From an uncultured Planctomycetaceae bacterium (GTDB lineage: Bacteria > Planctomycetota > Phycisphaerae > SM23-33), in NCBI GenBank assembly GCA_964531695.1, contig CAZHEH010000013.1, forward strand, positions 6,000 through 69,999: DNA of 64,000 nucleotides, given 5' to 3'. Positions 1,313 through 43,896 of this stretch are shown one piece after another. A model generated the notes under the pieces. That model had not been told where the DNA came from. It ran no database searches and saw only the letters and a program-made list of their open reading frames with translations. How positions within the stretch are numbered: position 1 is the first letter of the stretch; each line of letters starts with the position of its first letter. The position numbers were made by a program, and so were the translations under genes.

Positions 1313-3988
1313 CTATTCCCGATACGGCCCCATGGGCCGGAAGGCGAGTCGGCTGTTGGCGGGGATGCGGCCGGATTCCTCGAAGATCAGCAGCTCGTTC
1401 TGCTCCTGGAGCCAGCACTCGGGCAGGTAGTAGTACTGCTGCGGGCCGACCGTCCAGAACCGCCCGCAGTCGTGCCCGTTGAGGTAGATCTGGCCCTTGC
1501 GCGCCCCGACGATGTGCAGGAACAGCGGCTCGCCCTTCGGCTCGTATTTGAAGCCGGTGACGTACCACGCGGGCTGGTCCTTGCCGACGACCTTGCCGCC
1601 TTCCTCAGGCACGGTCCACTCACGCCAGGACCAGTCCGCCTCGCCGGTCAGCGACTCGGCGAGCGTGTGCAGGGCGACCTGCTTGAGGGCGCCGGGCGAT
1701 TCCTCGCCCCACAGCATCAGCGTGATCTTGTTCTTGCCCTTCTTCAGGGCCGAGCCGAAGGTCACGTCGCCGAAGTTCGGCCCTCCTCCGGGCCAGAAGC
1801 CGCGCAGCTTGTCGTTGCACAGCACCGCGACGTGGTACGGCAGGTCCGTGAAGGAAAGGTGGATCGGGGCGACCTTCGTCAGCGGCACGGATGCCTCTGC
1901 CGCCCAGCAGGTGCATTCCGCCAGCGCCCCGGCCCGGTAGGCGTACTGCCGCGGGATGAGCCGCTTGGGGAAGCTCTCCTGCTCGTTGACGCGGAACTTG
2001 AGCGACTTCAGCGGCTTGGCGTCGTACACGTGGCCGAAGATGCCCTTCCTCTCGCCGAGTCGGCAGCCGGCGTTGAAGCGACCGAGGTTGTCGACCAGGG
2101 CGACCAGCACGTTGCGGCCCTTCTTGAAGCTCGCCGAGATCGGCTTGCGAACCGCACCCTCGCCCCGGCCCCAGGTGCCGATCAGCCGCCCGTTCAAGTA
2201 GAGCGTCGCGCGGTCTTCGCACTCGGGCAGGAAGAGCTTGCGCTGCCCGGCCCGCTTCGTGGTGATCTCCATGCGGTACCACGCGTAGCCGTAATGCACG
2301 CCGAGGCGGTCCACGTCCCTCGGGCCGGAGATCCGGGCCCACTCCAGCTCCTCGCCGTCGGCCGGCTCCGTGCAGACGCTGATGCGCTTCCACGCCTTCA
2401 GCCGCGGCGCCGTCGGCTTGCGCGCCGAACCGGCCTCCTTGACCTTGCGGTGCGAGAGCTTGCCCTCGTACGACAGCAGGGCGTACTGCTTCGCGCCCCG
2501 GGCGTGGACGATCTCCTCCTCCGGGTCCTCCCCGACGTACGCCGGGCCGAACAGGATGTGCTCCTCGAGCGGCCACGTCCGCATCGCCAGGTCGCTGTTG
2601 ACCAGCACGACCCGGAGGCCTTGCCATTCGACGATCTCCGGCTCGTCCTTGGCCGGCACTTCCGCGACGGTCTCGCGCCCGTTGACGCTGAACCGCGCCT
2701 CCCAGCCGGCCGGGCCGTGGAGAATCAGGGTGTTCTCGCCGAACAGCCCCAGCGGCGTCAGGTTGGCGTAATCGAGCGTGATCTCCTCGCTGAGGGCCAG
2801 GTCGACCGGCACGGCCGCGGCGCCGACGGGCGCCAGCGGCACGTCGAGTTCCCGGCCGCGAGGCAGAGAGACCCGGACCCGGTCGATGTCGTCTCGCCCG
2901 CTGTTGGTCACGACGGCCCAACTGCCCTCGGTGCCGGTGAGGTTCAGCACGTCCGAGGCGTCGTGGATGTTGACGCCCGGCTCCTCGACGAAGCACGAGG
3001 CGAAGAACCGCCCCATGTGGTGGGCCAGCAGGTTGACCAGCCGCGTGAGATAGTACTTTTCCGTCAGTCCGCCGCCCTCGGCCAGGGGGGCGTCGTAGTC
3101 GTAGCTGGTGGTCTGGTACGCCTCGGCCCCGTGCGGCAAGCGGCTGCCCCAGAAGCCGAAGTTCGTGCCGCCGTGCCACATGTACGCGTTGTACTGGCCG
3201 CCGGCACCGAGGATCTCCATCTGTCGGCGGGCCACGTCGCGCGGGTCGCGCTCGGCATGCTCACCGCCCCAACGGTCGAACCAGCCGACGTGATGCTCGG
3301 TGAACAGCAGCGGCGCGCTGGGCTGTCGAAGCGAGAGATGCTTGAGCTGCCGCACCTCGCGTTCGTAGCCGTTGAGGCACTCGATCGCCTCCGGCACGGG
3401 CGGGTCCGTGCAGTGGTTGCACGTGAGGATCGGGATCTCGAACCCGGCCCGCTGGAAGAGCTGGCTGATGAACTCCAGATACCGCAGCCGGTCCGGCATC
3501 GTGGTGTCGGTGTACTCGTTCTCGTTCTGGATCAGCAGGATGTTGCCCCCGCGCGGCACCTGAAGCTCCGCCAGCGGCGTGAGCACCTGGCGGAAGTACT
3601 TGTCGAAGTAGTGCGTGTAGGCGGCGTTGTTCGTACGGAAGCTCACGCCGCTGCGCGCCGTCAGCCAGCCCGGCAGGCCGCCGAAGTCCCACTCGGCGCA
3701 GATGTACGGGCCCGGACGCAGTATCACGTACAGCCCCAGCTCCCCGGCCGTGCGCACGAACTCGACGACGTCCTCCTGCCCCTCCATGCGCCACTCGCCC
3801 TCTGACGGCTCGTGAACATTCCACGCGACGTAGGTGCTGATGCAGTTGAGCCCCGCGCGGCGCGCCTTGACCAGCCGGTCCCGCCACAGCTCGTGCGGCA
3901 CGCGGAAGTAGTGGATCGAGCCGCTGGCCAGCCACACGCGGCTGCCGTCCACGAGGAAGCTCCGGTCATCGTAGGTTACGGTTGCCAT
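1313..3988 (-). CDS. Beta-galactosidase, glycoside hydrolase family 35
   Basis: N-terminal MATVTYDDRSFLVDGSRV...HYFRVPHELWRDRL...ISTYVAWNVHEP...ICAEWDFGGLPGWL...IQNENEY matches the GH35 TIM-barrel; start moved to an internal Met, since the upstream extension is an Arg/Pro-rich artefact. Confidence 0.85.
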   Translation of the reverse strand: MATVTYDDRSFLVDGSRVWLASGSIHYFRVPHELWRDRLVKARRAGLNCISTYVAWNVHEPSEGEWRMEGQEDVVEFVRTAGELGLYVILRPGPYICAEWDFGGLPGWLTARSGVSFRTNNAAYTHYFDKYFRQVLTPLAELQVPRGGNILLIQNENEYTDTTMPDRLRYLEFISQLFQRAGFEIPILTCNHCTDPPVPEAIECLNGYEREVRQLKHLSLRQPSAPLLFTEHHVGWFDRWGGEHAERDPRDVARRQMEILGAGGQYNAYMWHGGTNFGFWGSRLPHGAEAYQTTSYDYDAPLAEGGGLTEKYYLTRLVNLLAHHMGRFFASCFVEEPGVNIHDASDVLNLTGTEGSWAVVTNSGRDDIDRVRVSLPRGRELDVPLAPVGAAAVPVDLALSEEITLDYANLTPLGLFGENTLILHGPAGWEARFSVNGRETVAEVPAKDEPEIVEWQGLRVVLVNSDLAMRTWPLEEHILFGPAYVGEDPEEEIVHARGAKQYALLSYEGKLSHRKVKEAGSARKPTAPRLKAWKRISVCTEPADGEELEWARISGPRDVDRLGVHYGYAWYRMEITTKRAGQRKLFLPECEDRATLYLNGRLIGTWGRGEGAVRKPISASFKKGRNVLVALVDNLGRFNAGCRLGERKGIFGHVYDAKPLKSLKFRVNEQESFPKRLIPRQYAYRAGALAECTCWAAEASVPLTKVAPIHLSFTDLPYHVAVLCNDKLRGFWPGGGPNFGDVTFGSALKKGKNKITLMLWGEESPGALKQVALHTLAESLTGEADWSWREWTVPEEGGKVVGKDQPAWYVTGFKYEPKGEPLFLHIVGARKGQIYLNGHDCGRFWTVGPQQYYYLPECWLQEQNELLIFEESGRIPANSRLAFRPMGPYRE

Positions 3989-4390
3989 GGCGATGCCCTT
4001 CGTGCGAGCCCGCGCCCGGCCCACCTCGGCAGGCCGCCTGCACGGCCGCGGCGGGCCTGTTCCGCAAGCCGGATGCATTACGGCGCGAGCGATACGGCAT
4101 GGACTGCGATGGCCGGCATGGGCGAATGCCGGCCAAGGCCCTTGGTAACAAGTGTCTTCCGACATCTCCGAGTGTACGAACGGCCAATCGGCATGCAACA
4201 AAAAACGCCGACACGGCAACCTCTGTCGCTTATGTCAATACAAAACACAGCCACCAAACACGCAATGCTGGCCGCACGTTGTGATGCCGATGGCGCCAAC
4301 ACATAAAAACAGGCGATTCGGACGTATTTCGCTCACGGCCGGGCGCGGCGGAAATTCCAGTTAAGAACCCGTAAACTGTCAATCATTCGC

Positions 4391-14966: not shown

Positions 14967-17291
14967 CTACTCCGGCCGGGCCGTGCGCGTGTGGCTCAGC
15001 GCGAGGTTGCGCATCAGCGCGAAGGCCGTTTCCGGGGCGTAGCCGTCCACGACGTAGGACGAATAGCCCACGAGGCCGGCGGTGATGTCTTCCCGGCTGT
15101 AGTAGATGATGGGCCGCCCCGCGACGCGGACGACGCGCAACGGCAGCCGCTTTTCGAGCCGTCGCTCGCCCGTCCTGCGGCGGTAGCTCACGTCCTCGAT
15201 CCTGATGCTGTGTTTGTCGACGTTCAGCAGCGGGTCGGACGCCTCCACGCGTCGCAGTGCGCCGCGGCCGTACAGCGTCTCGATCATCTCCTCGGCCGCC
15301 TTGGCGAACTCCTCGTCGCCGCCGACCGCGTCCACCACGAGCACATGCGGCCCGCCCTCGACGAACTTGCGGAGGGCGGCTAGCTGCTCGTCGGTCAGCT
15401 CGAAGTCACCGGTGCCGCTCAGCGTGGCGATCGAGGCCTCGGTCTCGGGCAACTCGGCGATGTCGATCGGCCCCACGACCTCGACCCGGGTGCCGTGCTT
15501 GTGCGCCATGATGCGCGAGAACCGCTGCCAGGCGAGCGGCTCCGGGTCGTGATTGCCCTCGAACGCCAGACGCGCCACGGTGACGGTCGGCAGCTTGTCG
15601 TCGCCTTCGGGCTCCTCCGGCCAGACCTTCGACCCGCGCGCGAGCAAGGACTTGTCCGTCACGTAGGCGGCGATATTGGCGGCCGCCTGGAAGGCCCACT
15701 GCTCGGTATCTCGCCGCTGGAGTTGCCACGACCGGGACAGGTCCGCGTCGGTGTGAATCACCAGCGGCCGCACGCCGTTGGAGATGACCCGAAGATTCAC
15801 CCGGCGGGAGTAGCGTCGGAGGTCGAACTGCACGTCCCTCGCGTAGATCGGATGATCGCGGGGCAGCGTCTCCAGCTCGTAGCGGGGGAACATCTCCTTG
15901 TAGATCTGGCGCATGCCGTGCCGGAAGCCGCCGCCCCCGCACTCGGCCACGCTGAGAATCGTCCCGCCCTGGTGGACGAAGCGGCGTATGCGGGCGATCT
16001 GCTCGTCGGTGAAGTTCGGCCGCTTGGCGCCGGAGATGTACAGGATCGGGGCGTCGTGCCACAGTCGGGCGGGGACATCGAGGTTGATGATCTGCCAGTT
16101 GATCTCGCGCCGCTCGAAGACCTCGGACACCCACCGCGTCAGCGAGGCCAGGTCCCGCGGACGGTTGTTCCAGTCGCCGTCAAACTGCAGCTTGTTGAAC
16201 AGAACCGGGCGCCGGCCTCGCACGAGAAACAGCATCGCGTAGGCGGTGGCGGCTTCCTTGCCGTACTTGCCGCTCCAGGAGCCGTCGTCCTTCTGGTCGT
16301 CGATGAGCCACATCGCGCCGGATTGGTACCAGTCCACCGTTCCGAAGTACTTGTAGCCGCTGGCAACGCCGACCCGCTCGATGCCGTACAGGTAGTAGTA
16401 CATGTCCCCGTGGCCGCGGACCTTCTTCGACGTGTTGAGCGTGGGTTCGTCGCCCGACGCGTCGATGTAGTTGGCGTCCAACCAGTCCAGCCCGCGCTGC
16501 AGCGAGGCCTGGACCTTCTTGCCGACGCCGCCGGCATCGCAGCGGATGAACTGATTGAGGAAGATGTTGTCGACGCAGACGTACATGCTCGCCACGCCGG
16601 CCGTGACCATCGTGCCCGACGAGTCCTCCTTCATGTGAGAATCCGCGCCGTAGTACTGCCACCCGCCGTCGGCCTTCTGCGTCTCGTACCAGTAGGTGTA
16701 CACCTTCTCCCAGTAGCCGGCCGGAATCTCCCAGTTCGCCGTCGCCCCGGCCCAGACGCCCAGCAGCCCGTACTGGCTGTTGGAGTTGTCGCCGCGGCTC
16801 TTACCCTCCCCGCGCGAGTCATAGCCGTAGCTGCCGTCCGCCGTGGATCGGATCAGCCGGTCCACGTCGAAGCGCAGGGGCTTGTGGTACGGCTTGCTCC
16901 GCTTGATGGCCGAGTAGAACGCCTGGCACCGCAGCCCCAGCTCGTAGGTCTTCTCGCTCTTGCGGTCGGCCATCCACTCCAAGGCGCGATCGGCCGCCTC
17001 CTCGGCACGCGTACGCAGCGCGTCGTCCTCGATGTAGTCGAGACTCTCCAGGATCGCGTAGGTCACCAGCGGCGTGCAGCCCTGCTTGTAATCCCCCCTG
17101 GGGAAGGGCCATTCCGCCCCCTCTTGACTCTCACACAGATAGCGAATGCCGTCGGCAATCGCCTTGTCCACGGCCGCGTCGAACCGCTCCACCTCATCGG
17201 CGGTCTTGAGATCGGCCGCATCCGCCGTGCGGCCGCACGAGACGTACGGAATCAAACAGCACAGGAGAATAAGCGGTAGGGTACTTCGCAT
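14967..17291 (-). CDS. Secreted alpha/alpha-toroid (prenyltransferase/squalene-oxidase-repeat-like) N-terminal domain fused to a DUF4159-like C-terminal domain
   Basis: Signal peptide MRSTLPLILLCCLIPYVSC; N-terminal half has aromatic/Gly-rich repeats (QYGLLGVWAG, GGWQYYG, DGSWSG) of the terpenoid-cyclase/prenyltransferase toroid fold; C-terminal 350 aa matches the architecture I recall for DUF4159. Confidence 0.5.
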   Translation of the reverse strand: MRSTLPLILLCCLIPYVSCGRTADAADLKTADEVERFDAAVDKAIADGIRYLCESQEGAEWPFPRGDYKQGCTPLVTYAILESLDYIEDDALRTRAEEAADRALEWMADRKSEKTYELGLRCQAFYSAIKRSKPYHKPLRFDVDRLIRSTADGSYGYDSRGEGKSRGDNSNSQYGLLGVWAGATANWEIPAGYWEKVYTYWYETQKADGGWQYYGADSHMKEDSSGTMVTAGVASMYVCVDNIFLNQFIRCDAGGVGKKVQASLQRGLDWLDANYIDASGDEPTLNTSKKVRGHGDMYYYLYGIERVGVASGYKYFGTVDWYQSGAMWLIDDQKDDGSWSGKYGKEAATAYAMLFLVRGRRPVLFNKLQFDGDWNNRPRDLASLTRWVSEVFERREINWQIINLDVPARLWHDAPILYISGAKRPNFTDEQIARIRRFVHQGGTILSVAECGGGGFRHGMRQIYKEMFPRYELETLPRDHPIYARDVQFDLRRYSRRVNLRVISNGVRPLVIHTDADLSRSWQLQRRDTEQWAFQAAANIAAYVTDKSLLARGSKVWPEEPEGDDKLPTVTVARLAFEGNHDPEPLAWQRFSRIMAHKHGTRVEVVGPIDIAELPETEASIATLSGTGDFELTDEQLAALRKFVEGGPHVLVVDAVGGDEEFAKAAEEMIETLYGRGALRRVEASDPLLNVDKHSIRIEDVSYRRRTGERRLEKRLPLRVVRVAGRPIIYYSREDITAGLVGYSSYVVDGYAPETAFALMRNLALSHTRTARPE

Positions 17292-17774
17292 GGCGGGGGC
17301 TCCGTCAACGGCGTATCGGGGGGTGTCCTGCTGCATCTTCATTATCCCCTATCGGTTGCGCCCGTGCAACGACAAAGCGCGCGATGCCGCCTCCGAACGT
17401 ACGGCGCCGTATCGTGGCATGGGCAAAGCGGGGACAGGCACGTCTCCGCCCGGACGGGCCTCCGCTGCGCTGCGTCTGGGCGTCGCTTGAGCCCGTCCCC
17501 GTTTTGCCGCCCGCGGCGAGCGCAGTCGAACCCGCCTTGCCGGCGGGCAGGCCGAACAGCGACAGGCAGCCGGGTCGCCCATCGCCACTGACAGCCGCGC
17601 GTGGCAGAACGTCTTCCAGTAGTTCGTGTTGATCAGAACGTGCCGCACCTGCCGCTTGCCCTGAACGTTCGGCACGCGTCAGCAGCAGCCGACGCGCTCG
17701 CCCGGCCGAATTCGGCTGGCGCCAGCGCAAAGGCAAGCCCCTGCAAGCTGCTTGCCTACAGGGGCTTACGTTGA

Positions 17775-17845
17775 CTGGGGATCAAGGATTCGAACCTTGA
17801 CTAACTGATCCAGAGTCAGTCGTGCTACCGTTACACTAATCCCCA
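17775..17845 (-). tRNA. tRNA-Gln (anticodon CTG)
   Basis: Manual fold of the reverse complement: acceptor TGGGGAT/ATCCCCA with U1-A72 and G73 as in bacterial tRNA-Gln; anticodon stem ACTGA/TCAGT with loop CTCTGGA; T-arm GGTTCGAATCC. Confidence 0.75.
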
Positions 17846-17967
17846 ATCGGCGGATCGTCGGCGCCGGCACGGCCGGCCCACGACTGACTCATGGGATCCA
17901 TCGTCCATACGGACGCCGACCTTGTCAAGCCCGGCAGGCATGGTGTGCCCGCTTCGCCGCCGGTAGA

Positions 17968-21389: not shown

Positions 21390-22529
21390 ATGAGCAACCT
21401 GCCGCCGCTCGAATTGAGCCCCCTGCCGGAAGTGGACCTGCGACACCTGTTCGTGCTGACGGACGACACGGGCATGCTTCAGCACGCCACGCACGCCACG
21501 CCGGACCTTCACCACGGCTACTGCACGGACGACAACGCCCGGGCCCTCATCGCCGCCGTGAAGGTCGCCGCCCTGCCGCCCGAAACCTGGGTCGGGAATC
21601 ACGGCTACGCCGAGGACGACCTGCTGATCGCCACGCAGCGCTATCTGGCCTTCCTGGCCTACGCCTACAACCCCGAGGCCGGGCGCTTCCGGAACTTCAT
21701 GCAGTACGACCGCACCTGGCTCGAGGAGGTCGGCTCCGAGGACAGCCACGCCCGCACCGTCTGGGCCCTCGGAAAGGTCGTGCGGCTCGCCCCCAACGAC
21801 GACACCCGCGACCTCGCCGAGCGGCTCATGCACCAGGCCATGCCGGCGGCCGAGGGCTTCGCCCACCTTCGACCGTGGGCCTACTCCCTGCTGGGCGTCG
21901 ACGAGTACCTCCGCGCGGGCGAGGGCCGCAACCTGGCCGAGCGCCTGCGGTACGCCCTCGGGCAGCAGCTCTTCGCCCGCTGGAACGAGCACGCCTCGCC
22001 GGACTGGCCCTGGTGGGAGGACTCGCTGACGTGGGGCAACGCCAAGCTGCCGCACGCGATGCTCACGGCCGCGCTGGCCGAGGAGCGCCCCAAGATGCGC
22101 GACGCCGCCCTCGACGCACTCCGATGGCTGCTCGACGTGCAAACGGGCGAGAGCGGCCAGCTCTCCATCGTCGGCAACCACGGCTGGTACCACCGCGGCG
22201 GCGAGAAGGCGAAGTTCGACCAGCAGCCGATCGAGGCCAAGAGCTTGATCCAGGCCTGTCTGACGGCCGCGGCCGGCACCGGCGACGCCTACTGGACCGA
22301 GCAGGCCGTGCGGTGCTTCGAGTGGTTCGGCGGGCGGAACGACGTCGGCGCGCCGCTGTACAACCCCGACACCGGCGGGGGCCAGGACGGGCTGACCGAG
22401 CACGGCCCGAACTCCAACCAGGGCGCCGAGTCCACCCTCGCCTACATCATGAGCGTCCTGGAGCTGCACCTCTACGACCGGGCCAGCAAGGGCGAACTCG
22501 ACCTCGCCCCCGCGCCCGTCGTCGGGTAG
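21390..22529 (+). CDS. Six-hairpin (alpha/alpha toroid) glycosidase-like protein
   Basis: HGYCTDDNARAL and repeated W/aromatic-rich helical hairpins resemble GH63/GH15-type toroid hydrolases; family not assigned. Confidence 0.4.
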   Translation: MSNLPPLELSPLPEVDLRHLFVLTDDTGMLQHATHATPDLHHGYCTDDNARALIAAVKVAALPPETWVGNHGYAEDDLLIATQRYLAFLAYAYNPEAGRFRNFMQYDRTWLEEVGSEDSHARTVWALGKVVRLAPNDDTRDLAERLMHQAMPAAEGFAHLRPWAYSLLGVDEYLRAGEGRNLAERLRYALGQQLFARWNEHASPDWPWWEDSLTWGNAKLPHAMLTAALAEERPKMRDAALDALRWLLDVQTGESGQLSIVGNHGWYHRGGEKAKFDQQPIEAKSLIQACLTAAAGTGDAYWTEQAVRCFEWFGGRNDVGAPLYNPDTGGGQDGLTEHGPNSNQGAESTLAYIMSVLELHLYDRASKGELDLAPAPVVG

Positions 22530-22628
22530 ACCGCCCTCCTCACCACGGAGACCCCGCAGCCGCACGCAATGCGGGCGACACCGGCACCCGGCGCCTTACA
22601 CGCCGGCGCCCGATCCAAGGGAGGGGAG

Positions 22629-22712
22629 GAAAAAGGGGACAGGCAACTTTTCCGTTCCTCCCGTCATGCCGTTTGGTGGGATGCGGTTACGGAAAAGCTG
22701 CCTGTCCCCTTT
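22629..22712. repeat. Palindromic repeat element, copy 1: AAAAGGGGACAGGCAACTT ... AAGCTGCCTGTCCCCTTTT flanking a variable 45-nt core that is itself hairpin-forming
   Basis: 15-bp inverted-repeat arms, near-identical to the copy at 43205-43286; lies between convergent genes; A-tract and T-tract flanks give a terminator-like shape in both orientations. Confidence 0.5.
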
Positions 22713-23847
22713 TAGTCAAGGCCTCATCGCGTTTCCCGAAGACGAAGCAATTGAGCCGATCGCTCCACTCGGGGCGAGCATCGCCCTTCTCGTCCAGATA
22801 CGCAAGCAGATCGTCCCGCGTCCGCCCTTGGAAGCAGTCGTGCTGCGCAGCTTCCTCACGGAATGCCCGCAAATGCGCGGCGACTTCCTTATTGCTTACA
22901 TTCTCCAGCATCCAAGTTACGAACATCGGGTCGGGACTCGGCCGGAACAATGTCATCGCGCTCCATAGTTCCCACTCGGAACACTCCCGGAGCACGAGAA
23001 CGGATGCGTCATAGTCTCGGTCGTTTTCAGCGACGGCCAGAGCTGCTTGGCAATCTCGCCGCTCGGCCAGCAGATCAACTACGTCCTTCCGGATAACTGG
23101 ATCTGGCAGCCGCATGCCCTGGATAACCATTAAGCTGATCTGGCCGGCGACTACGCCCTCGGGATCGGCCTGGGCAGCATCTATCGCATCCCTGGTGCCC
23201 CATTGCAGCAGACTCACTGTGGCATACTCGGTCACGAATTGGCGCATAACGCCTGTTGCGTCCAATCCCAACTCGCCTTCCCGGATGGCCCGAAGCATGT
23301 CTCGCGCCCAGGTACCGCGGGCGTGCCCGAGGGCCATTGCAAGACTTCGCGCATCGTCTTCTGACCTCTGCCCCAGGCGGACCAGAGCATCACGGCACGC
23401 GGGGCTGCCGCACAGGACGAGCGCAACCATCCGCTTATGGCGACGTACGGAATCGGGCAATCCGGCGACCAGCTCAGCGAATTCCTCACCACGGCCAAGC
23501 GATCGGAAGACCATGCCCGCGAGCAGAAGGTCCTCTCCCCGTTCGGCTCGCGACTCCAGCGCCGTCACCTCTTCACTGTCCAGAGCCACACGGCCATCCG
23601 AGAGATAGCGCCACGCATCCCGCGAGTCGATACTCTCAGAAGACAGACAGGAGTCTAGGTAGCGAAGCGGAAAACGCACGTTGCCGGGGTCAATGCCTGC
23701 ATCGCCTGGGGGTGTTCCGCCTTTGCTGTCTTCGTGATAATCCTTGCAGTTCAGCCTCGCCCCAACGGCCAATGCCAGAAGCAACGGGCATCCAATAAGC
23801 AACAAGGCAGTCACGCGCCGCATACGATGCATCGCCATCGCCGTCAC
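22687..23847 (-). CDS. Hypothetical secreted protein in a lower-GC segment
   Basis: Signal peptide MRRVTALLLIGCPLLLALAVGA; GC about 52-60% against a 68% background; codon usage richer in Lys/Asp/Glu; no recognised domain. Confidence 0.5.
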   Translation of the reverse strand: MTAMAMHRMRRVTALLLIGCPLLLALAVGARLNCKDYHEDSKGGTPPGDAGIDPGNVRFPLRYLDSCLSSESIDSRDAWRYLSDGRVALDSEEVTALESRAERGEDLLLAGMVFRSLGRGEEFAELVAGLPDSVRRHKRMVALVLCGSPACRDALVRLGQRSEDDARSLAMALGHARGTWARDMLRAIREGELGLDATGVMRQFVTEYATVSLLQWGTRDAIDAAQADPEGVVAGQISLMVIQGMRLPDPVIRKDVVDLLAERRDCQAALAVAENDRDYDASVLVLRECSEWELWSAMTLFRPSPDPMFVTWMLENVSNKEVAAHLRAFREEAAQHDCFQGRTRDDLLAYLDEKGDARPEWSDRLNCFVFGKRDEALTKRGQAAFP

Positions 23848-23891
23848 CTATGCCTTTTCTTAAGGGCGTTTCCGCTCACTCAGTCAGTAGG

Positions 23892-23913
23892 GCGTGCAAG
23901 CTGGCTTGCACGC
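23892..23913. promoter_or_regulatory. Perfect 22-bp palindrome GCGTGCAAGC-TG-GCTTGCACGC about 45 bp upstream of the start of the 22687-23847 gene; candidate operator or 5' hairpin
   Basis: Seen directly in the sequence; 10-bp arms. Confidence 0.3.
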
Positions 23914-24538
23914 GCAACGTACACGTCCCACGCTTCCCGAATGAATCATTCCAGAAGCATTCCGCGCGGCCCGGCGGGTCGATCCGTCCGGGCATCCCGG
24001 AGCCGCGATACTGGGGTTGGGGCTATCCGGGGACACATAACCTGTTTCTCCTTCTTCGGCTTCCGCTTGCGCTTCTTGGGCACAAGGTTCCGGCCCAGCG
24101 GCCGCCCCACGTGCTGCAGGAATGAGAGCTCGCCAGGAGGCCTGCCCGTACTCGTGGAGACGAAGCGATGCTGCACGGCCCGCTTCGTCCTCAGCCCGCA
24201 GATACTCGCGCCAGGTACACACCCACCCGGCCGGGACGCTTGTCCGGCCGTAGCCGCCAGGCGAGGCGGATACCGCTTCAGCGGGTCGGCGTCCTGTCCC
24301 TTGCGGACCTCGAGGGGCTGTGCCGGGGGCGCGCAGGTCGGTCGGCCTTGGGCGAAGCCCCGAGATGACGCGTTCCCCATCACGGCCGGGGATTATCCCG
24401 CGCACGGCCGGAATCGGCAAGTGGCAACCGCGGCCGCGCGGGCACGGGCGTGAGGATACGCCCGGGGCACCCGGCTGCTCACGGCCACGGCGCGCGCCGC
24501 TGATGCAGTCGGCCGGCCCAGCCGCTATCCTGTGTTGT

Positions 24539-42004: not shown

Positions 42005-43159
42005 CTACTCGGCCGGGCCGGCGCCGGCCGCGGCGCGCGTGGCGAAGATCGGACACCGGCGGCCGAAACGCTCGGCGAAGGCGGCGGCAATCGCGTCCTC
42101 GACGGCTTCCGCCCGGGCGGCGTCGGCGAGGAGGATCGCGCAGCCGCCGAAGCCGCCGCCGGTCATGCGGGCGCCGTGGACGCCCTCGCAGCCCTCGGCC
42201 GTGGCGACGATCGCGTCCAGCTCCGCGCAACTCACCTCGTAATCGTCCCGCAGCGACTCGTGCGAAGCGTACATCAGCTCGCCGAAGCTCAGCCAGTCGC
42301 CGCGCTCCATCGCCTCGACCGCCTGAAGCGTGCGGGCGATCTCCCCCACCACGTGGCGGGCCCGCATCAGCTCCGTGCCGCCCAGCACATCCGCCCGGTG
42401 CGCCTCGGCGAGTTGCCGCTCGGTGACATCGCGCAACGACGCCACGCCCAGCTTGCCCGCGGCCGCCTCGCACTGGGCCCGCCGCTGGGCGTACTCCCCG
42501 CCGCCAATCGAGTGGCTGACCTGTGTATTCGCCACGAGCAGCACCAGGGAGGGCTCGTCGAACCGCACGTGCCGCGTCTCGCCGCTGCGACAGTCGAGCA
42601 GCAGGGCCCGGCCCGCCCGGCCCATGACGGCGATGGACTGATCCATGATGCCGCAGGGGGAGTTGGCGAACTCGTGCTCGGCCCGCTGGCAGAGGAGCAC
42701 CAGGTCGCGGTCGGTGAGCTTCTTCCGCGCCCCCGCAACGGCCAGCAGTGCCTCGGCCGTGGCGACCTCGAGCGATGCCGAGGAGGACAGCCCGCCGCCG
42801 ATGGGCACGTCGCTGTCGAACAGGACGTCGCAACCGTGGAGCTTGATCTTGGCGTCCCGCAGCCCGGCCGCGACGCCCTTGGGGTAGTTCGCCCACGCGG
42901 GCCTGCCGGGGACGATCTCGCCGGTCAGATCGATCTCGGCCGGCTCGTCCGCCTGGCAGGAGCGGAAGGACGCGTGCGTATCTTCGCGCGGGGCATAGAG
43001 GGCGACGGTCCGCCGCTCGATGGCGATGGGCAGGACGAACCCGTCGTTGTAGTCCGTGTGCTCGCCGATCAGGTTGACACGTCCCGGGGCCTGCGCCGCG
43101 CCGGCCGGCTCGCGCCCGAAGGCGGCGGCGAACGCCGCCCTCCGTTCCGTGGGATTCAT
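42005..43159 (-). CDS. galK: Galactokinase
   Basis: GHMP kinase signature PGRVNLIGEHTDYNDGFVLPIAI, ATP-binding P-loop PIGGGLSSSASL and C-terminal GARMTGGGFGGC. Confidence 0.9.
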   Translation of the reverse strand: MNPTERRAAFAAAFGREPAGAAQAPGRVNLIGEHTDYNDGFVLPIAIERRTVALYAPREDTHASFRSCQADEPAEIDLTGEIVPGRPAWANYPKGVAAGLRDAKIKLHGCDVLFDSDVPIGGGLSSSASLEVATAEALLAVAGARKKLTDRDLVLLCQRAEHEFANSPCGIMDQSIAVMGRAGRALLLDCRSGETRHVRFDEPSLVLLVANTQVSHSIGGGEYAQRRAQCEAAAGKLGVASLRDVTERQLAEAHRADVLGGTELMRARHVVGEIARTLQAVEAMERGDWLSFGELMYASHESLRDDYEVSCAELDAIVATAEGCEGVHGARMTGGGFGGCAILLADAARAEAVEDAIAAAFAERFGRRCPIFATRAAAGAGPAE

Positions 43160-43204
43160 GGCCGGGACGGTAGCGTCGGCTCCGCGAGCCGTCAAGTCGC
43201 CCGG

Positions 43205-43286
43205 AAAAGGGGACAGGCAACTTCTTTCGCGCAGAGATCTGCGACTGTCACGAATCGCTCCAGCAGAAAGCTGCCTGTCCCCTTTT
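43205..43286. repeat. Palindromic repeat element, copy 2 (same 19-bp terminal inverted repeats as 22629-22712; different core)
   Basis: AAAAGGGGACAGGCAACTT ... AAGCTGCCTGTCCCCTTTT; intergenic between galK and the DUF3750 gene. Confidence 0.5.
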
Positions 43287-43310
43287 CCTACCTGTGGTGG
43301 ATCGCATCTG

Positions 43311-43826
43311 CTACGGCAGCGGGTAGCCGCTTCCGACGGCGGCGAGCGGCAAAGCGAAGTCGATATCCGCCTGGCGGAGGACCCACGTGATATACGTGTT
43401 GCTGTTCGGGCCGGGCCAGTAGGCGTACTCGTCGCGGTACGGGTAGTCGCCCGGGCGGCTCAGGACCACCAGGAGGCGGACCGCCTCGTCGCCGCGCCAT
43501 TCGGCCACGGCCCAGCTCGGCCCCGCACCGACGCCGGAGGTCGGGCCTGAGTTGTTGACGCGCAGATGGCCGTGCGCACCCCCGGCGTCCTGCCAGACCT
43601 CCCAGCGATGCCAGCGCTCGCCCGGCGCATAGTTGCCGACGAACCAGCAGTGCACGGCGATGTCCTCGATGTGCGGAATCCGGGCGGCGCGAAGCTGCAC
43701 GATGGGGCCCTCGACCTCGCCCGGCTTTGTGAATCCCGACTGGTCCGGCACGTGAACGCAGCCGGACGACCCGGACAGAGCCGCCAGAACCAGAGCCGCC
43801 GCCGCGCGTGGAACCGGATGCCGCAT
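43311..43826 (-). CDS. DUF3750-like lipoprotein
   Basis: Signal peptide plus lipobox LSGSSGC; the conserved YWPGPNSNTY block matches what I recall of DUF3750. Confidence 0.5.
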   Translation of the reverse strand: MRHPVPRAAAALVLAALSGSSGCVHVPDQSGFTKPGEVEGPIVQLRAARIPHIEDIAVHCWFVGNYAPGERWHRWEVWQDAGGAHGHLRVNNSGPTSGVGAGPSWAVAEWRGDEAVRLLVVLSRPGDYPYRDEYAYWPGPNSNTYITWVLRQADIDFALPLAAVGSGYPLP

Positions 43827-43896
43827 GTCAGAGAACACATACCCTCCCCGCCGACGCGCGCGCAAACTCGGACGGACCCGAGTCGTCGATCGTCGA

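Follow-up and report, generated by a model that had tools for sequence, protein, structure and literature searches.

What kind of element do two closely similar palindromes represent, lying 20 kb apart among the housekeeping genes of an uncultured Planctomycetaceae bacterium? They occur in a stretch of 64,000 nucleotides (GenBank assembly GCA_964531695.1, contig CAZHEH010000013.1, positions 6,000 to 69,999), hereafter the window, in whose coordinates all positions are given. The original prediction, made from the sequence alone, described them as a novel family of palindromic repeats with 19-bp arms around variable cores, resembling either a REP (repetitive extragenic palindromic) or MITE (a miniature transposable element with inverted repeats) type of repeat, a bidirectional attenuator or a recombination site. 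The present analysis favors, with a probability of about 0.72, the interpretation that they are non-autonomous REPIN-like doublets, that is, two inverted recognition repeats of a Y1 transposase around a short unconstrained core, belonging to the world of RAYT (REP-associated tyrosine transposase) and TIRYT enzymes. In kind, the arm sequences match the repeats found with RAYT-like Y1 transposases, exact arm units cluster at one clade of Y1 genes in other genomes, and the family, patchily distributed among relatives, is multicopy in certain genomes.

Inverted arms, unrelated cores and a decayed third copy

The two palindromes with 19-bp arms were recovered essentially as first described, with coordinates shifted by 1-2 nt (Table 1). 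The 19-mer AAAAGGGGACAGGCAACTT is found exactly on the plus strand at both left arms and the 19-mer AAAAGGGGACAGGCAGCTT exactly on the minus strand at both right arms, giving four exact matches to the 19-nt arms in the window compared with none in 100 dinucleotide-preserving shuffles. Left and right arms are complementary at all but one position, where both copies have the same mismatch, A.C when read on the plus strand and G.U when read on the minus strand. The A/T tracts that had been set apart as separate flanking features instead belong to the inverted repeat: the outer flanks GGAGGAAAAA...TTTTAGTCAA and CCCGGAAAA...TTTTCCTACC prolong it and are not direct repeats. Pairing reaches 25 nt in copy 1 (22631-22655 with 22689-22713) and 21 nt in copy 2, which has one additional outer GG/CC pair.

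The cores, 45 nt in copy 1 and 44 nt in copy 2, do not align to each other, in agreement with the claim that they are completely different. The further claim that each is internally palindromic applies clearly to copy 1, whose core ends are self-complementary (TTTTCCGT/ACGGAAAA); the core of copy 2 forms small internal hairpins only. RNA structure prediction, which had been proposed as a check, folds each copy into a single long hairpin of -52.7 to -54.2 kcal/mol (z -5.6 to -9.0) that is highly stable on either strand, and the corresponding DNA folding energies are -32.2 kcal/mol for copy 1 and -27.2 kcal/mol for copy 2. A third, decayed copy retains an exact 12-nt left arm and a right arm with two changes at an arm spacing of 51 nt, and its RNA fold reaches -58.1 kcal/mol (z -4.5).

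The motif GGGGWSAS is matched by GGGGACAG, with which the left arm of copy 3 and all four arms of copies 1 and 2 begin. The conserved unit in the window is a 13-nt block, GGGGACAGGCA(A/G)C, placed between a short A-run and a short T-run, and its first 8-9 nt read GGGGWCAGR, a motif held in common by the inverted repeats at RAYT-like tyrosine (HUH) transposase genes of the IS200 family.

Table 1. Positions of the repeat copies, the probable transposase remnant and neighboring features in the 64-kb window.
Feature	Positions	Strand	Details
Copy 1	22631-22713		left arm 22631-22649 (AAAAGGGGACAGGCAACTT), core 22650-22694, right arm 22695-22713 (AAGCTGCCTGTCCCCTTTT)
Copy 2	43203-43288		left arm 43205-43223, core 43224-43267, right arm 43268-43286
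Copy 3, decayed	17422-17508		left arm 17430-17441 (exact 12-mer GGGGACAGGCAC), right arm 17489-17500 (GGGGACGGGCTC on the minus strand)
Probable transposase remnant	24036-24261	-	encodes the last ~70-85 residues (C-terminus) of a Y1 transposase of the RAYT-like (TIRYT) type, ...GRPPGELSFLQHVGRPLGRNLVPKKRKRKPKK
Repeat-like end of the remnant	24029-24051	+	GGGGACACATAACCTGTTTCTCC, fits GGGGWSAS
386-aa open reading frame (ORF)	22687-23847	-	signal/lipoprotein-like N-terminus, no Pfam match, in lower-GC segment; context, not part of the repeat
Conserved 379-aa gene	21390-22529	+	
Galactokinase gene	42005-43195 or 43159	-	
DUF3750 gene	43311-43865	-	
DUF4159 gene	14967-17342	-	
tRNA-Gln(CTG) gene	17773-17846	-	
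Stretch missing in closest relatives	22530-24538		

Arm units and Y1 transposase genes

Genes for RAYT-like tyrosine transposases termed TIRYT are flanked by inverted repeats that share GGGGWSAS, and in some genomes the repeats are scattered as well, either alone, as dimers or in clusters (Di Nocera et al. 2013; PMC3733652). Most TIRYTs belong to TnpA_Y1 subclass 2.1, found in ~15% of sampled strains, with the motif GGGG[AT][CG]A[CG]; the same survey found no REP-like sequences near subclass 2.1 genes and described in their proteins a C-terminal domain of helix-turn-helix (HTH) type with no known target (Quentin et al. 2018; PMC6006769). This association was re-derived from 80 metagenomic Y1 loci retrieved with a TIRYT alignment, in which GGGGWSAS was counted within 450 nt of the gene. 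Inward-pointing motifs stood upstream at 45 of the 80 loci, downstream at 37 and on both sides at 29, compared with 7 upstream and 5 downstream for the outward-pointing control. The TIRYT-flanking repeats diverge past the ninth base (GGGGTCAGATCCC, GGGGACAGATTTATTT, GGGGTCAGGTTCAC, GGGGACAGACCACG), and complementarity of 5 bp or more between their immediate flanks is present in 43 of 126 cases, where 11.8 would be expected, with a loop of 13 nt in 27 of those 43. The doublet arms are laid out alike, their block likewise measuring 13 nt and standing between A4 and T4; the flanks form a stem of 6 bp or more in 36 of 310 arms, where 6 would be expected, and arm stems of 9-12 bp are present in some lineages (Collinsella, Microthrix and Lachnospiraceae).

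In one clade of Y1 genes (L074 type), the four closest members all adjoin exact or near-exact GGGGACAGGCAC units. In a Pirellula metagenome-assembled genome (MAG; locus L074), the gene for a 402-aa Y1_Tnp protein (28.5 bits against a Pfam cutoff of 23) has an exact GGGGACAGGCAC unit ~170 nt upstream, two doublets farther upstream and another doublet ~250 nt downstream. Three homologues from other samples (P0243, P0247 and P0249; 60-67% identical) carry exact or one-mismatch GGGGACAGGCAC units at distances of 140-760 nt, with a chance expectation of ~0.04 units per locus. In other genomes, exact GGGGACAGGCAC units are found beside Y1 genes at L074, L207, L208, L209, L089 and L101, among which L089 has a canonical Y1 gene adjoining a unit cluster and L101 a Y1 gene fragment that ends at a unit, and a distant member (L131) has GGGACAGGCAA three times upstream. 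Across the 118 loci listed from the genome scan described below (each no longer than 8 kb), Y1 genes or fragments occur in four, which exceeds the chance expectation for a single-copy gene. All-against-all ORF clustering of these 118 loci yielded no protein family recurring beside the doublets, and the Y1 link emerged solely from targeted searches, in which Y1 genes were found by an HUH regular expression and by the TIRYT sequences of the 2013 supplement; E. coli RayT, used as a single phmmer query, had no match in the window or the loci.

Several further observations were made at these and related Y1 loci. The word TTGACCATTT(C/T)GTTGACA, which may be a promoter or an operator, stands upstream of all four L074-type genes (L074 ~4290-4310, L207 ~3735-3752, L208 ~3733-3750, L209 ~3833-3850), at ~100-125 nt from the gene in L074 and ~150-270 nt in L207-L209. 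Within positions 400-5660 of L089, a low-GC Clostridia MAG, GTGCCTGTCCCCACTTTGA units occupy every gap of a run of minus-strand genes, with 2-3 units in direct tandem, and one unit-bearing gap adjoins a Y1_Tnp gene whose C-terminal extension ends in an HTH-like sequence. At L116 (300-1560), an apparently frameshifted, RAYT-like planctomycete gene of the rba2408 type lies between inverted copies, ~250 bp long, of an IS110-like transposase gene's 5' end, with no GGGGACAGGCAC unit beside it.

The conservation of the block as a sequence, its occurrence as single units, direct tandems and inverted pairs, and the many copies that form no local hairpin would also be compatible with a double-stranded DNA binding site, serving as an operator or nucleoid-organizing site rather than as a transposition substrate. 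Its ligand might be the HTH-like C-terminal domain of subclass 2.1 Y1 proteins (PMC6006769), an extension of the kind present on the L089 protein, or else an unrelated host factor. This interpretation appears quite improbable, as Y1 transposases are the only genes that recur close to the elements among the 118 listed loci, the patchy distribution in close relatives is more in keeping with a selfish system or one that moves horizontally than with a host regulator, and the 13-nt loop layout at Y1 genes points to single-stranded DNA recognition of the kind known from IS200/IS605 elements.

The window itself probably holds the decayed end of a transposase gene of this type. When the translated remnant was compared by blastp with 57 TIRYT sequences, the matches always fell at the extreme C-terminus, the best being residues 189-220 of the 221 of ccr1445 at 37.7 bits, compared with 28.1 bits for the best of 300 shuffles; further matches include aba2776, L164, L167, L199 and others. 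The tblastn alignments consist of collinear, frameshifted pieces, in keeping with at least one frameshift in the remnant, and the catalytic N-terminal part is missing. A TIRYT profile hidden Markov model search did not detect the remnant, which is therefore rated as probable and not as certain, on the strength of the pairwise matches against the shuffle control. Directly after it comes GTGTCCCC, an inward-pointing GGGGACAC repeat directed toward the 3' end of the remnant, at the place where intact TIRYT genes carry their downstream repeat (-7 to +110 nt from the stop). Remnant and repeat lie 1.3 kb from copy 1, in ~690 nt of non-coding DNA just upstream of recO, within a ~2-kb segment that is missing in the nearest relatives. 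This probable remnant, which shares an inserted stretch with copy 1, would indicate that the lineage has hosted such elements.

The probable decayed Y1 gene in the window, together with the Y1 gene truncated at a unit in L101, raises the question of whether the doublets themselves are footprints, namely repeat - Y1 gene - repeat units that lost their interior and became immobile, with the cores as leftover internal DNA. The outward GGGG polarity of the doublets is the same as that of the repeats around intact genes, and a single position distinguishes left arms (A) from right arms (G), in L102 as well as in both window copies, much as the left and right repeats of the intact units L137 and L171 differ (ATCAAC versus AACAAC). 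Nevertheless, this is the least probable of the explanations considered and would be very surprising if true: the window cores share nothing with each other or with Y1 genes, the many near-identical whole doublets found elsewhere call for copying and not for independent decay, and the genome would need to have hosted many full units.

Spread of the block across bacterial phyla

The pattern search across genomes that had been suggested at the outset was performed on one genome per species (596 Gb) with the pattern GGGGACAGGCA-N35-65-TGCCTGTCCCC. It returned at least 118 stretches with inverted GGGGACAGGCA pairs, far above the ~1-2 expected by chance according to our own arithmetic (22 fixed bases, 31 spacings, 596 Gb). 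The matches listed come from ~67 assemblies and, by record title, ~10 phyla, often with several stretches per assembly. They include Planctomycetota, Acidobacteriota, Verrucomicrobiota, Pseudomonadota (Alpha-, Beta- and Gammaproteobacteria), Bacillota, Actinomycetota, Armatimonadota, Nitrospirota, Desulfobacterota and WOR-3, with Pseudoduganella lurida, Massilia sp. and Desulfoscipio geothermicus among them as isolates. Bases that the pattern does not force are conserved as well, with C at position 12 in 86% and at position 13 in 62% of the arms, and an A-run commonly precedes and a T-run commonly follows the block across these genomes. The general unit in most other genomes is A4-GGGGACAGGCACC-T4, and the arm variant of the window (AAC on the left, AGC on the right) is rare, being shared among the matches listed only with a Bryobacteraceae MAG (L102). 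No doublet was found in the 2.9 million viral contigs scanned.

The flanking proteins of the window point to a Phycisphaerae-like member of the Planctomycetota. Among its closest relatives (74% protein identity), no GGGGACAGGCA-like unit occurs in ~55 kb of sequence, and the distribution of the unit among relatives is accordingly patchy. Elsewhere, units occur singly, in direct tandem (L089) and as tandem arrays of doublets (L110). In the latter, a Bryobacterales MAG, four 72-nt doublets follow one another at 543-988 with periods of 134, 134 and 106 nt, and doublets and spacers are near-identical. Invariant arms around unrelated cores, as in the window, are also found in a family from a Caulobacter MAG. 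Other genomes carry many near-identical whole doublets, for example Pseudoduganella and the hosts of a 63-nt planctomycete family, which is represented by 24 distinct near-identical copies with compensatory changes in the outer stem. Copying of whole doublets seems to take place in such cases. The 63-nt family is common to many MAGs of Planctomycetaceae, Thermoguttaceae and Pirellulales (L005-L118); its core can be drawn as three mini-hairpins of 3-4 bp with a hypervariable central loop (GAA, TTC, TCC, GGA, TGC and others), and the side hairpins have undergone paired changes in L081 and L045.

Doublets are traversed by spurious long ORFs (L009, L026, L038, L055, L094, L118 and others), whose translations contain the peptides KRGQAPF, RCLSPF, KGTGTF and VPVPF. 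Such recurring peptide words from read-through of doublets could seed false protein families in these phyla. In a crude test of ORF avoidance, 63% of doublets and 85% of random sites lay inside some ORF of at least 150 aa, a comparison that is uninformative in GC-rich DNA, and hence no general claim is made on intergenic location.

Gene surroundings, proposed mechanism and relation to known systems

Copy 1 sits between convergent genes and starts 102 nt past the stop of the conserved 379-aa gene. Its right arm provides the final nine codons (TKRGQAAFP) and the stop, 27 nt in all, of the 386-aa ORF, so that the original statement that both copies are intergenic holds only partly for copy 1. Copy 2 has a minus-strand gene on either side, following the DUF3750 stop codon by 23 nt and ending 8-44 nt before the galactokinase gene, and copy 3 is intergenic, between the 5' end of the DUF4159 gene and the tRNA-Gln gene. 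The latter, ~265 nt from copy 3, is the sole Rfam or ARAGORN match in the window. Copy 1 does border a low-GC segment, as had been noted, with a GC content of 0.617 in 23001-24000 against ~0.68 for the whole window. In the closest relatives, the orthologous 380-aa gene is followed by recO after a spacer of 184 nt (L119) or, in L121, by one pilin-like gene, and the stretch absent from them, which comprises copy 1, the lower-GC 386-aa ORF and ~690 nt of non-coding DNA, is therefore lineage-specific.

These positions bear on the possibility that the copies are primarily bidirectional intrinsic terminators or attenuators whose similarity to each other is incidental. Both lie just past stop codons, copy 1 also overlapping the stop of the convergent ORF; the predicted RNA hairpins are very strong on both strands; the mismatch turns into G.U pairing when the minus strand is read, and copy 2 stands between two minus-strand genes; an A-run and a T-run commonly bracket the block across genomes; and REP elements have been reported to terminate transcription and stabilize mRNA (PMC6006769). 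As a primary function, however, termination is unlikely, because the sequence of a terminator stem need not be fixed, which leaves a 12-13-nt block identical across ~10 phyla unexplained, along with the match to the repeats of Y1 genes and the single or directly repeated units of L089 that form no hairpin. Moreover, only four T follow the stem, the core would make a loop of 44-45 nt, and a simple consensus scan for terminators calls neither copy. An efficient terminator 8-44 nt before galK would in addition leave no room for a galK promoter. The attenuator suggestion survives as a possible side effect: a strong GC-rich hairpin bracketed by A4 and T4 at gene ends could act secondarily as a weak bidirectional terminator or as a 3'-end or RNA stabilizer, a role that is plausible from position and stability.

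Other candidates were dropped on inspection of the sequence. Rfam 15 at the gathering threshold detected only a tRNA in the window and, across 18 related loci, only a tRNA-Sec, and copy 1 searched at E-values up to 10 matched only generic miRNA-precursor hairpin models far below their cut-offs. An attC-type recombination site, as in integrons, finds no support, as the R''/R' consensus is absent (the arm ends AGGCAAC and GCTGCCT do not fit RYYYAAC and GTTRRRY) and the copies do not form part of a cassette array. A sigma-54 promoter (GGCAC...TTGC) would have the wrong spacing and its motif is lacking in the window variant, and readings as a CsrA-type GGA loop or as an uptake sequence were likewise rejected on sequence grounds.

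For REPIN-like doublets of a Y1 system, the following sequence of events may be envisaged by analogy with IS608 TnpA and E. coli TnpA-REP, whose mechanism is summarized in PMC6006769. A cognate Y1 enzyme, encoded now or formerly elsewhere in the genome, would bind the unit on single-stranded DNA at replication forks and would cut and rejoin beside it, thereby spreading or maintaining units and doublets. The arms would be kept by interaction with the enzyme or by gene conversion among copies, and the core would be free to drift or to be replaced, which would explain identical arms around unrelated cores.

Several observations weigh against this reading. The window contains no intact Y1 gene, and the repeat at the remnant belongs to another subtype (GGGGACACATAAC) than the doublet arms. 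The unrelated cores of the window copies argue against transposition of the doublet as one unit. The flanks of the copy 1 arms (GGAAAA/TTTTCC) pair locally but weakly (-2.6 kcal/mol), and copy 2 has no stable local arm hairpin; should the enzyme require a hairpin loop that presents the unit, the window copies may be old or poor substrates. Around the L074-type genes, the units are mostly direct and not inverted, so that the canonical TIRtron geometry is not strictly kept, and planctomycete Y1 genes of the rba2408 type, considered as an alternative partner, have no GGGGWSAS flanks at three loci (L204-L206). For subclass 2.1 enzymes, no biochemistry on these repeats is available (PMC6006769).

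Comparison with described systems places the elements within a known kind of repeat. In REP and REPIN systems, a single-copy relative of Y1 transposases is flanked by the same repeats that are dispersed in the genome. The best-known cases are the REP, BIME and REPIN elements of E. coli and Pseudomonas with their RAYT (TnpA-REP) enzymes (Nunvar 2010; Bertels and Rainey 2011; Ton-Hoang 2012). With these, the window doublets share the organization as short extragenic repeats whose inverted pairing gives a long hairpin, the presence of many copies per genome in some hosts, and possible side effects on termination and mRNA stability. Unlike REPINs, the window arms have no GTAG or CGTC tag and are not strong palindromes themselves; the conserved part lies in a loop or stem interior and not in a GC-rich REP stem; the block is common across phyla whereas REPs are lineage-specific; and the window cores are unrelated whereas REPIN spacers are usually conserved. 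The original comparison with REP elements or MITEs is therefore apt in that a repeat family exists, with inverted pairs far above chance in many genomes and arms matching a Y1-transposase repeat class, but not in the usual sense of a MITE. Consistent with this, the proposed check for target-site duplications gave none, the flanks being inverted and not direct, and the partner enzyme would be a Y1 HUH and not a DDE transposase.

Elements of the IS200/IS605 type (IS608, ISDra2 and palindrome-associated elements) resemble the doublets in the Pfam Y1_Tnp superfamily of their enzymes, in the absence of target-site duplication and in the expected recognition of small single-strand hairpins. They differ in having no terminal inverted repeats, in that both end hairpins are read on one strand and in being multicopy with the gene inside, whereas the doublets lack the gene and consist of inverted repeats. 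Intrinsic terminators, among them those formed by paired uptake sequences in Neisseria and Haemophilus, likewise have a GC-rich hairpin with an A-run and a T-run downstream of genes, and in the paired uptake sequences a conserved word in inverted orientation forms the stem; in the present elements, by contrast, the loop or core is far larger, only four T follow, the terminator scan is negative, and the word is tied to transposase genes and not to DNA uptake.

The closest match is provided by the TIRtron repeats (Di Nocera 2013, BMC Genomics 14:522; Quentin 2018, BMC Genomics 19:475), and in functional terms by the REP/REPIN-RAYT systems. The GGGGACAG start of the arms fits their motif, the block likewise has 13 nt and GGGG points outward, its flanks in the window pairing weakly at best, dimers occur in the genome in the same manner, and other genomes have Y1 genes beside exact units. 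Dispersal as singles, dimers and clusters is also observed here, with two dimers and one decayed dimer in the window and dimers, tandems and clusters in L001-L118. The window doublets differ in that they enclose 44-45 nt of unrelated DNA and not a gene, that the 3' half of the block (GCAC/GCAAC) represents a subfamily absent from the texts consulted, and that the Y1 clade with the tightest link to it, the L074 type, whose proteins of ~400 aa have a long insert separating the HUH and Y motifs, mostly has direct units at its flanks.

The elements are thus a new subfamily within a known, though little-studied, class of selfish or domesticated bacterial repeats associated with IS200-like tyrosine transposases, and not a new kind of element. 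The novelty claimed at first does not extend to the repeat class, which was described in 2013 (PMC3733652) and discussed in 2018 (PMC6006769), but the GGGGACAGGCAC subfamily and its spread over phyla were not found in the literature searched, and an exact-string full-text search returned only eukaryotic primer or target sequences and none from bacteria. What seems to be new, on the basis of the related loci and not of the window itself, is a near-invariant 12-13-nt block over ~10 phyla, the hairpin layout of the 13-nt block and the L074-type clade as its likely partner. A bolder proposal, which we regard as possible but doubtful, is that the GGGGACAGGCAC doublets and the Y1 clade of L074 type are partners in a repeat-enzyme system of their own, one that would have passed horizontally among at least 10 phyla with the 12-13-nt block unchanged. 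The arms would then be differentiated left and right ends that bracket arbitrary short DNA, making the doublet a minimal carrier of variable hairpins and not a fixed REPIN.

For the window alone, the significance is modest, amounting to two or three copies of a known kind of repeat, and the result, unsurprising in kind, is useful mainly to specialists in HUH transposases and to genome annotation. For annotation, it accounts for recurrent spurious ORFs and for the strong hairpins that Planctomycetota, Acidobacteriota and other phyla have at the ends of genes. For the enzymes, the DNA partners of subclass 2.1 are barely characterized, and the GGGGWSAS repeats emerge as small hairpin-type units with a 13-nt block, one subfamily of which, with a core that varies unusually little, is scattered through many phyla in the form of REP-like doublets and is adjoined by a specific Y1 clade. 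These units and genes provide concrete substrates and enzymes for biochemical tests of DNA recognition.

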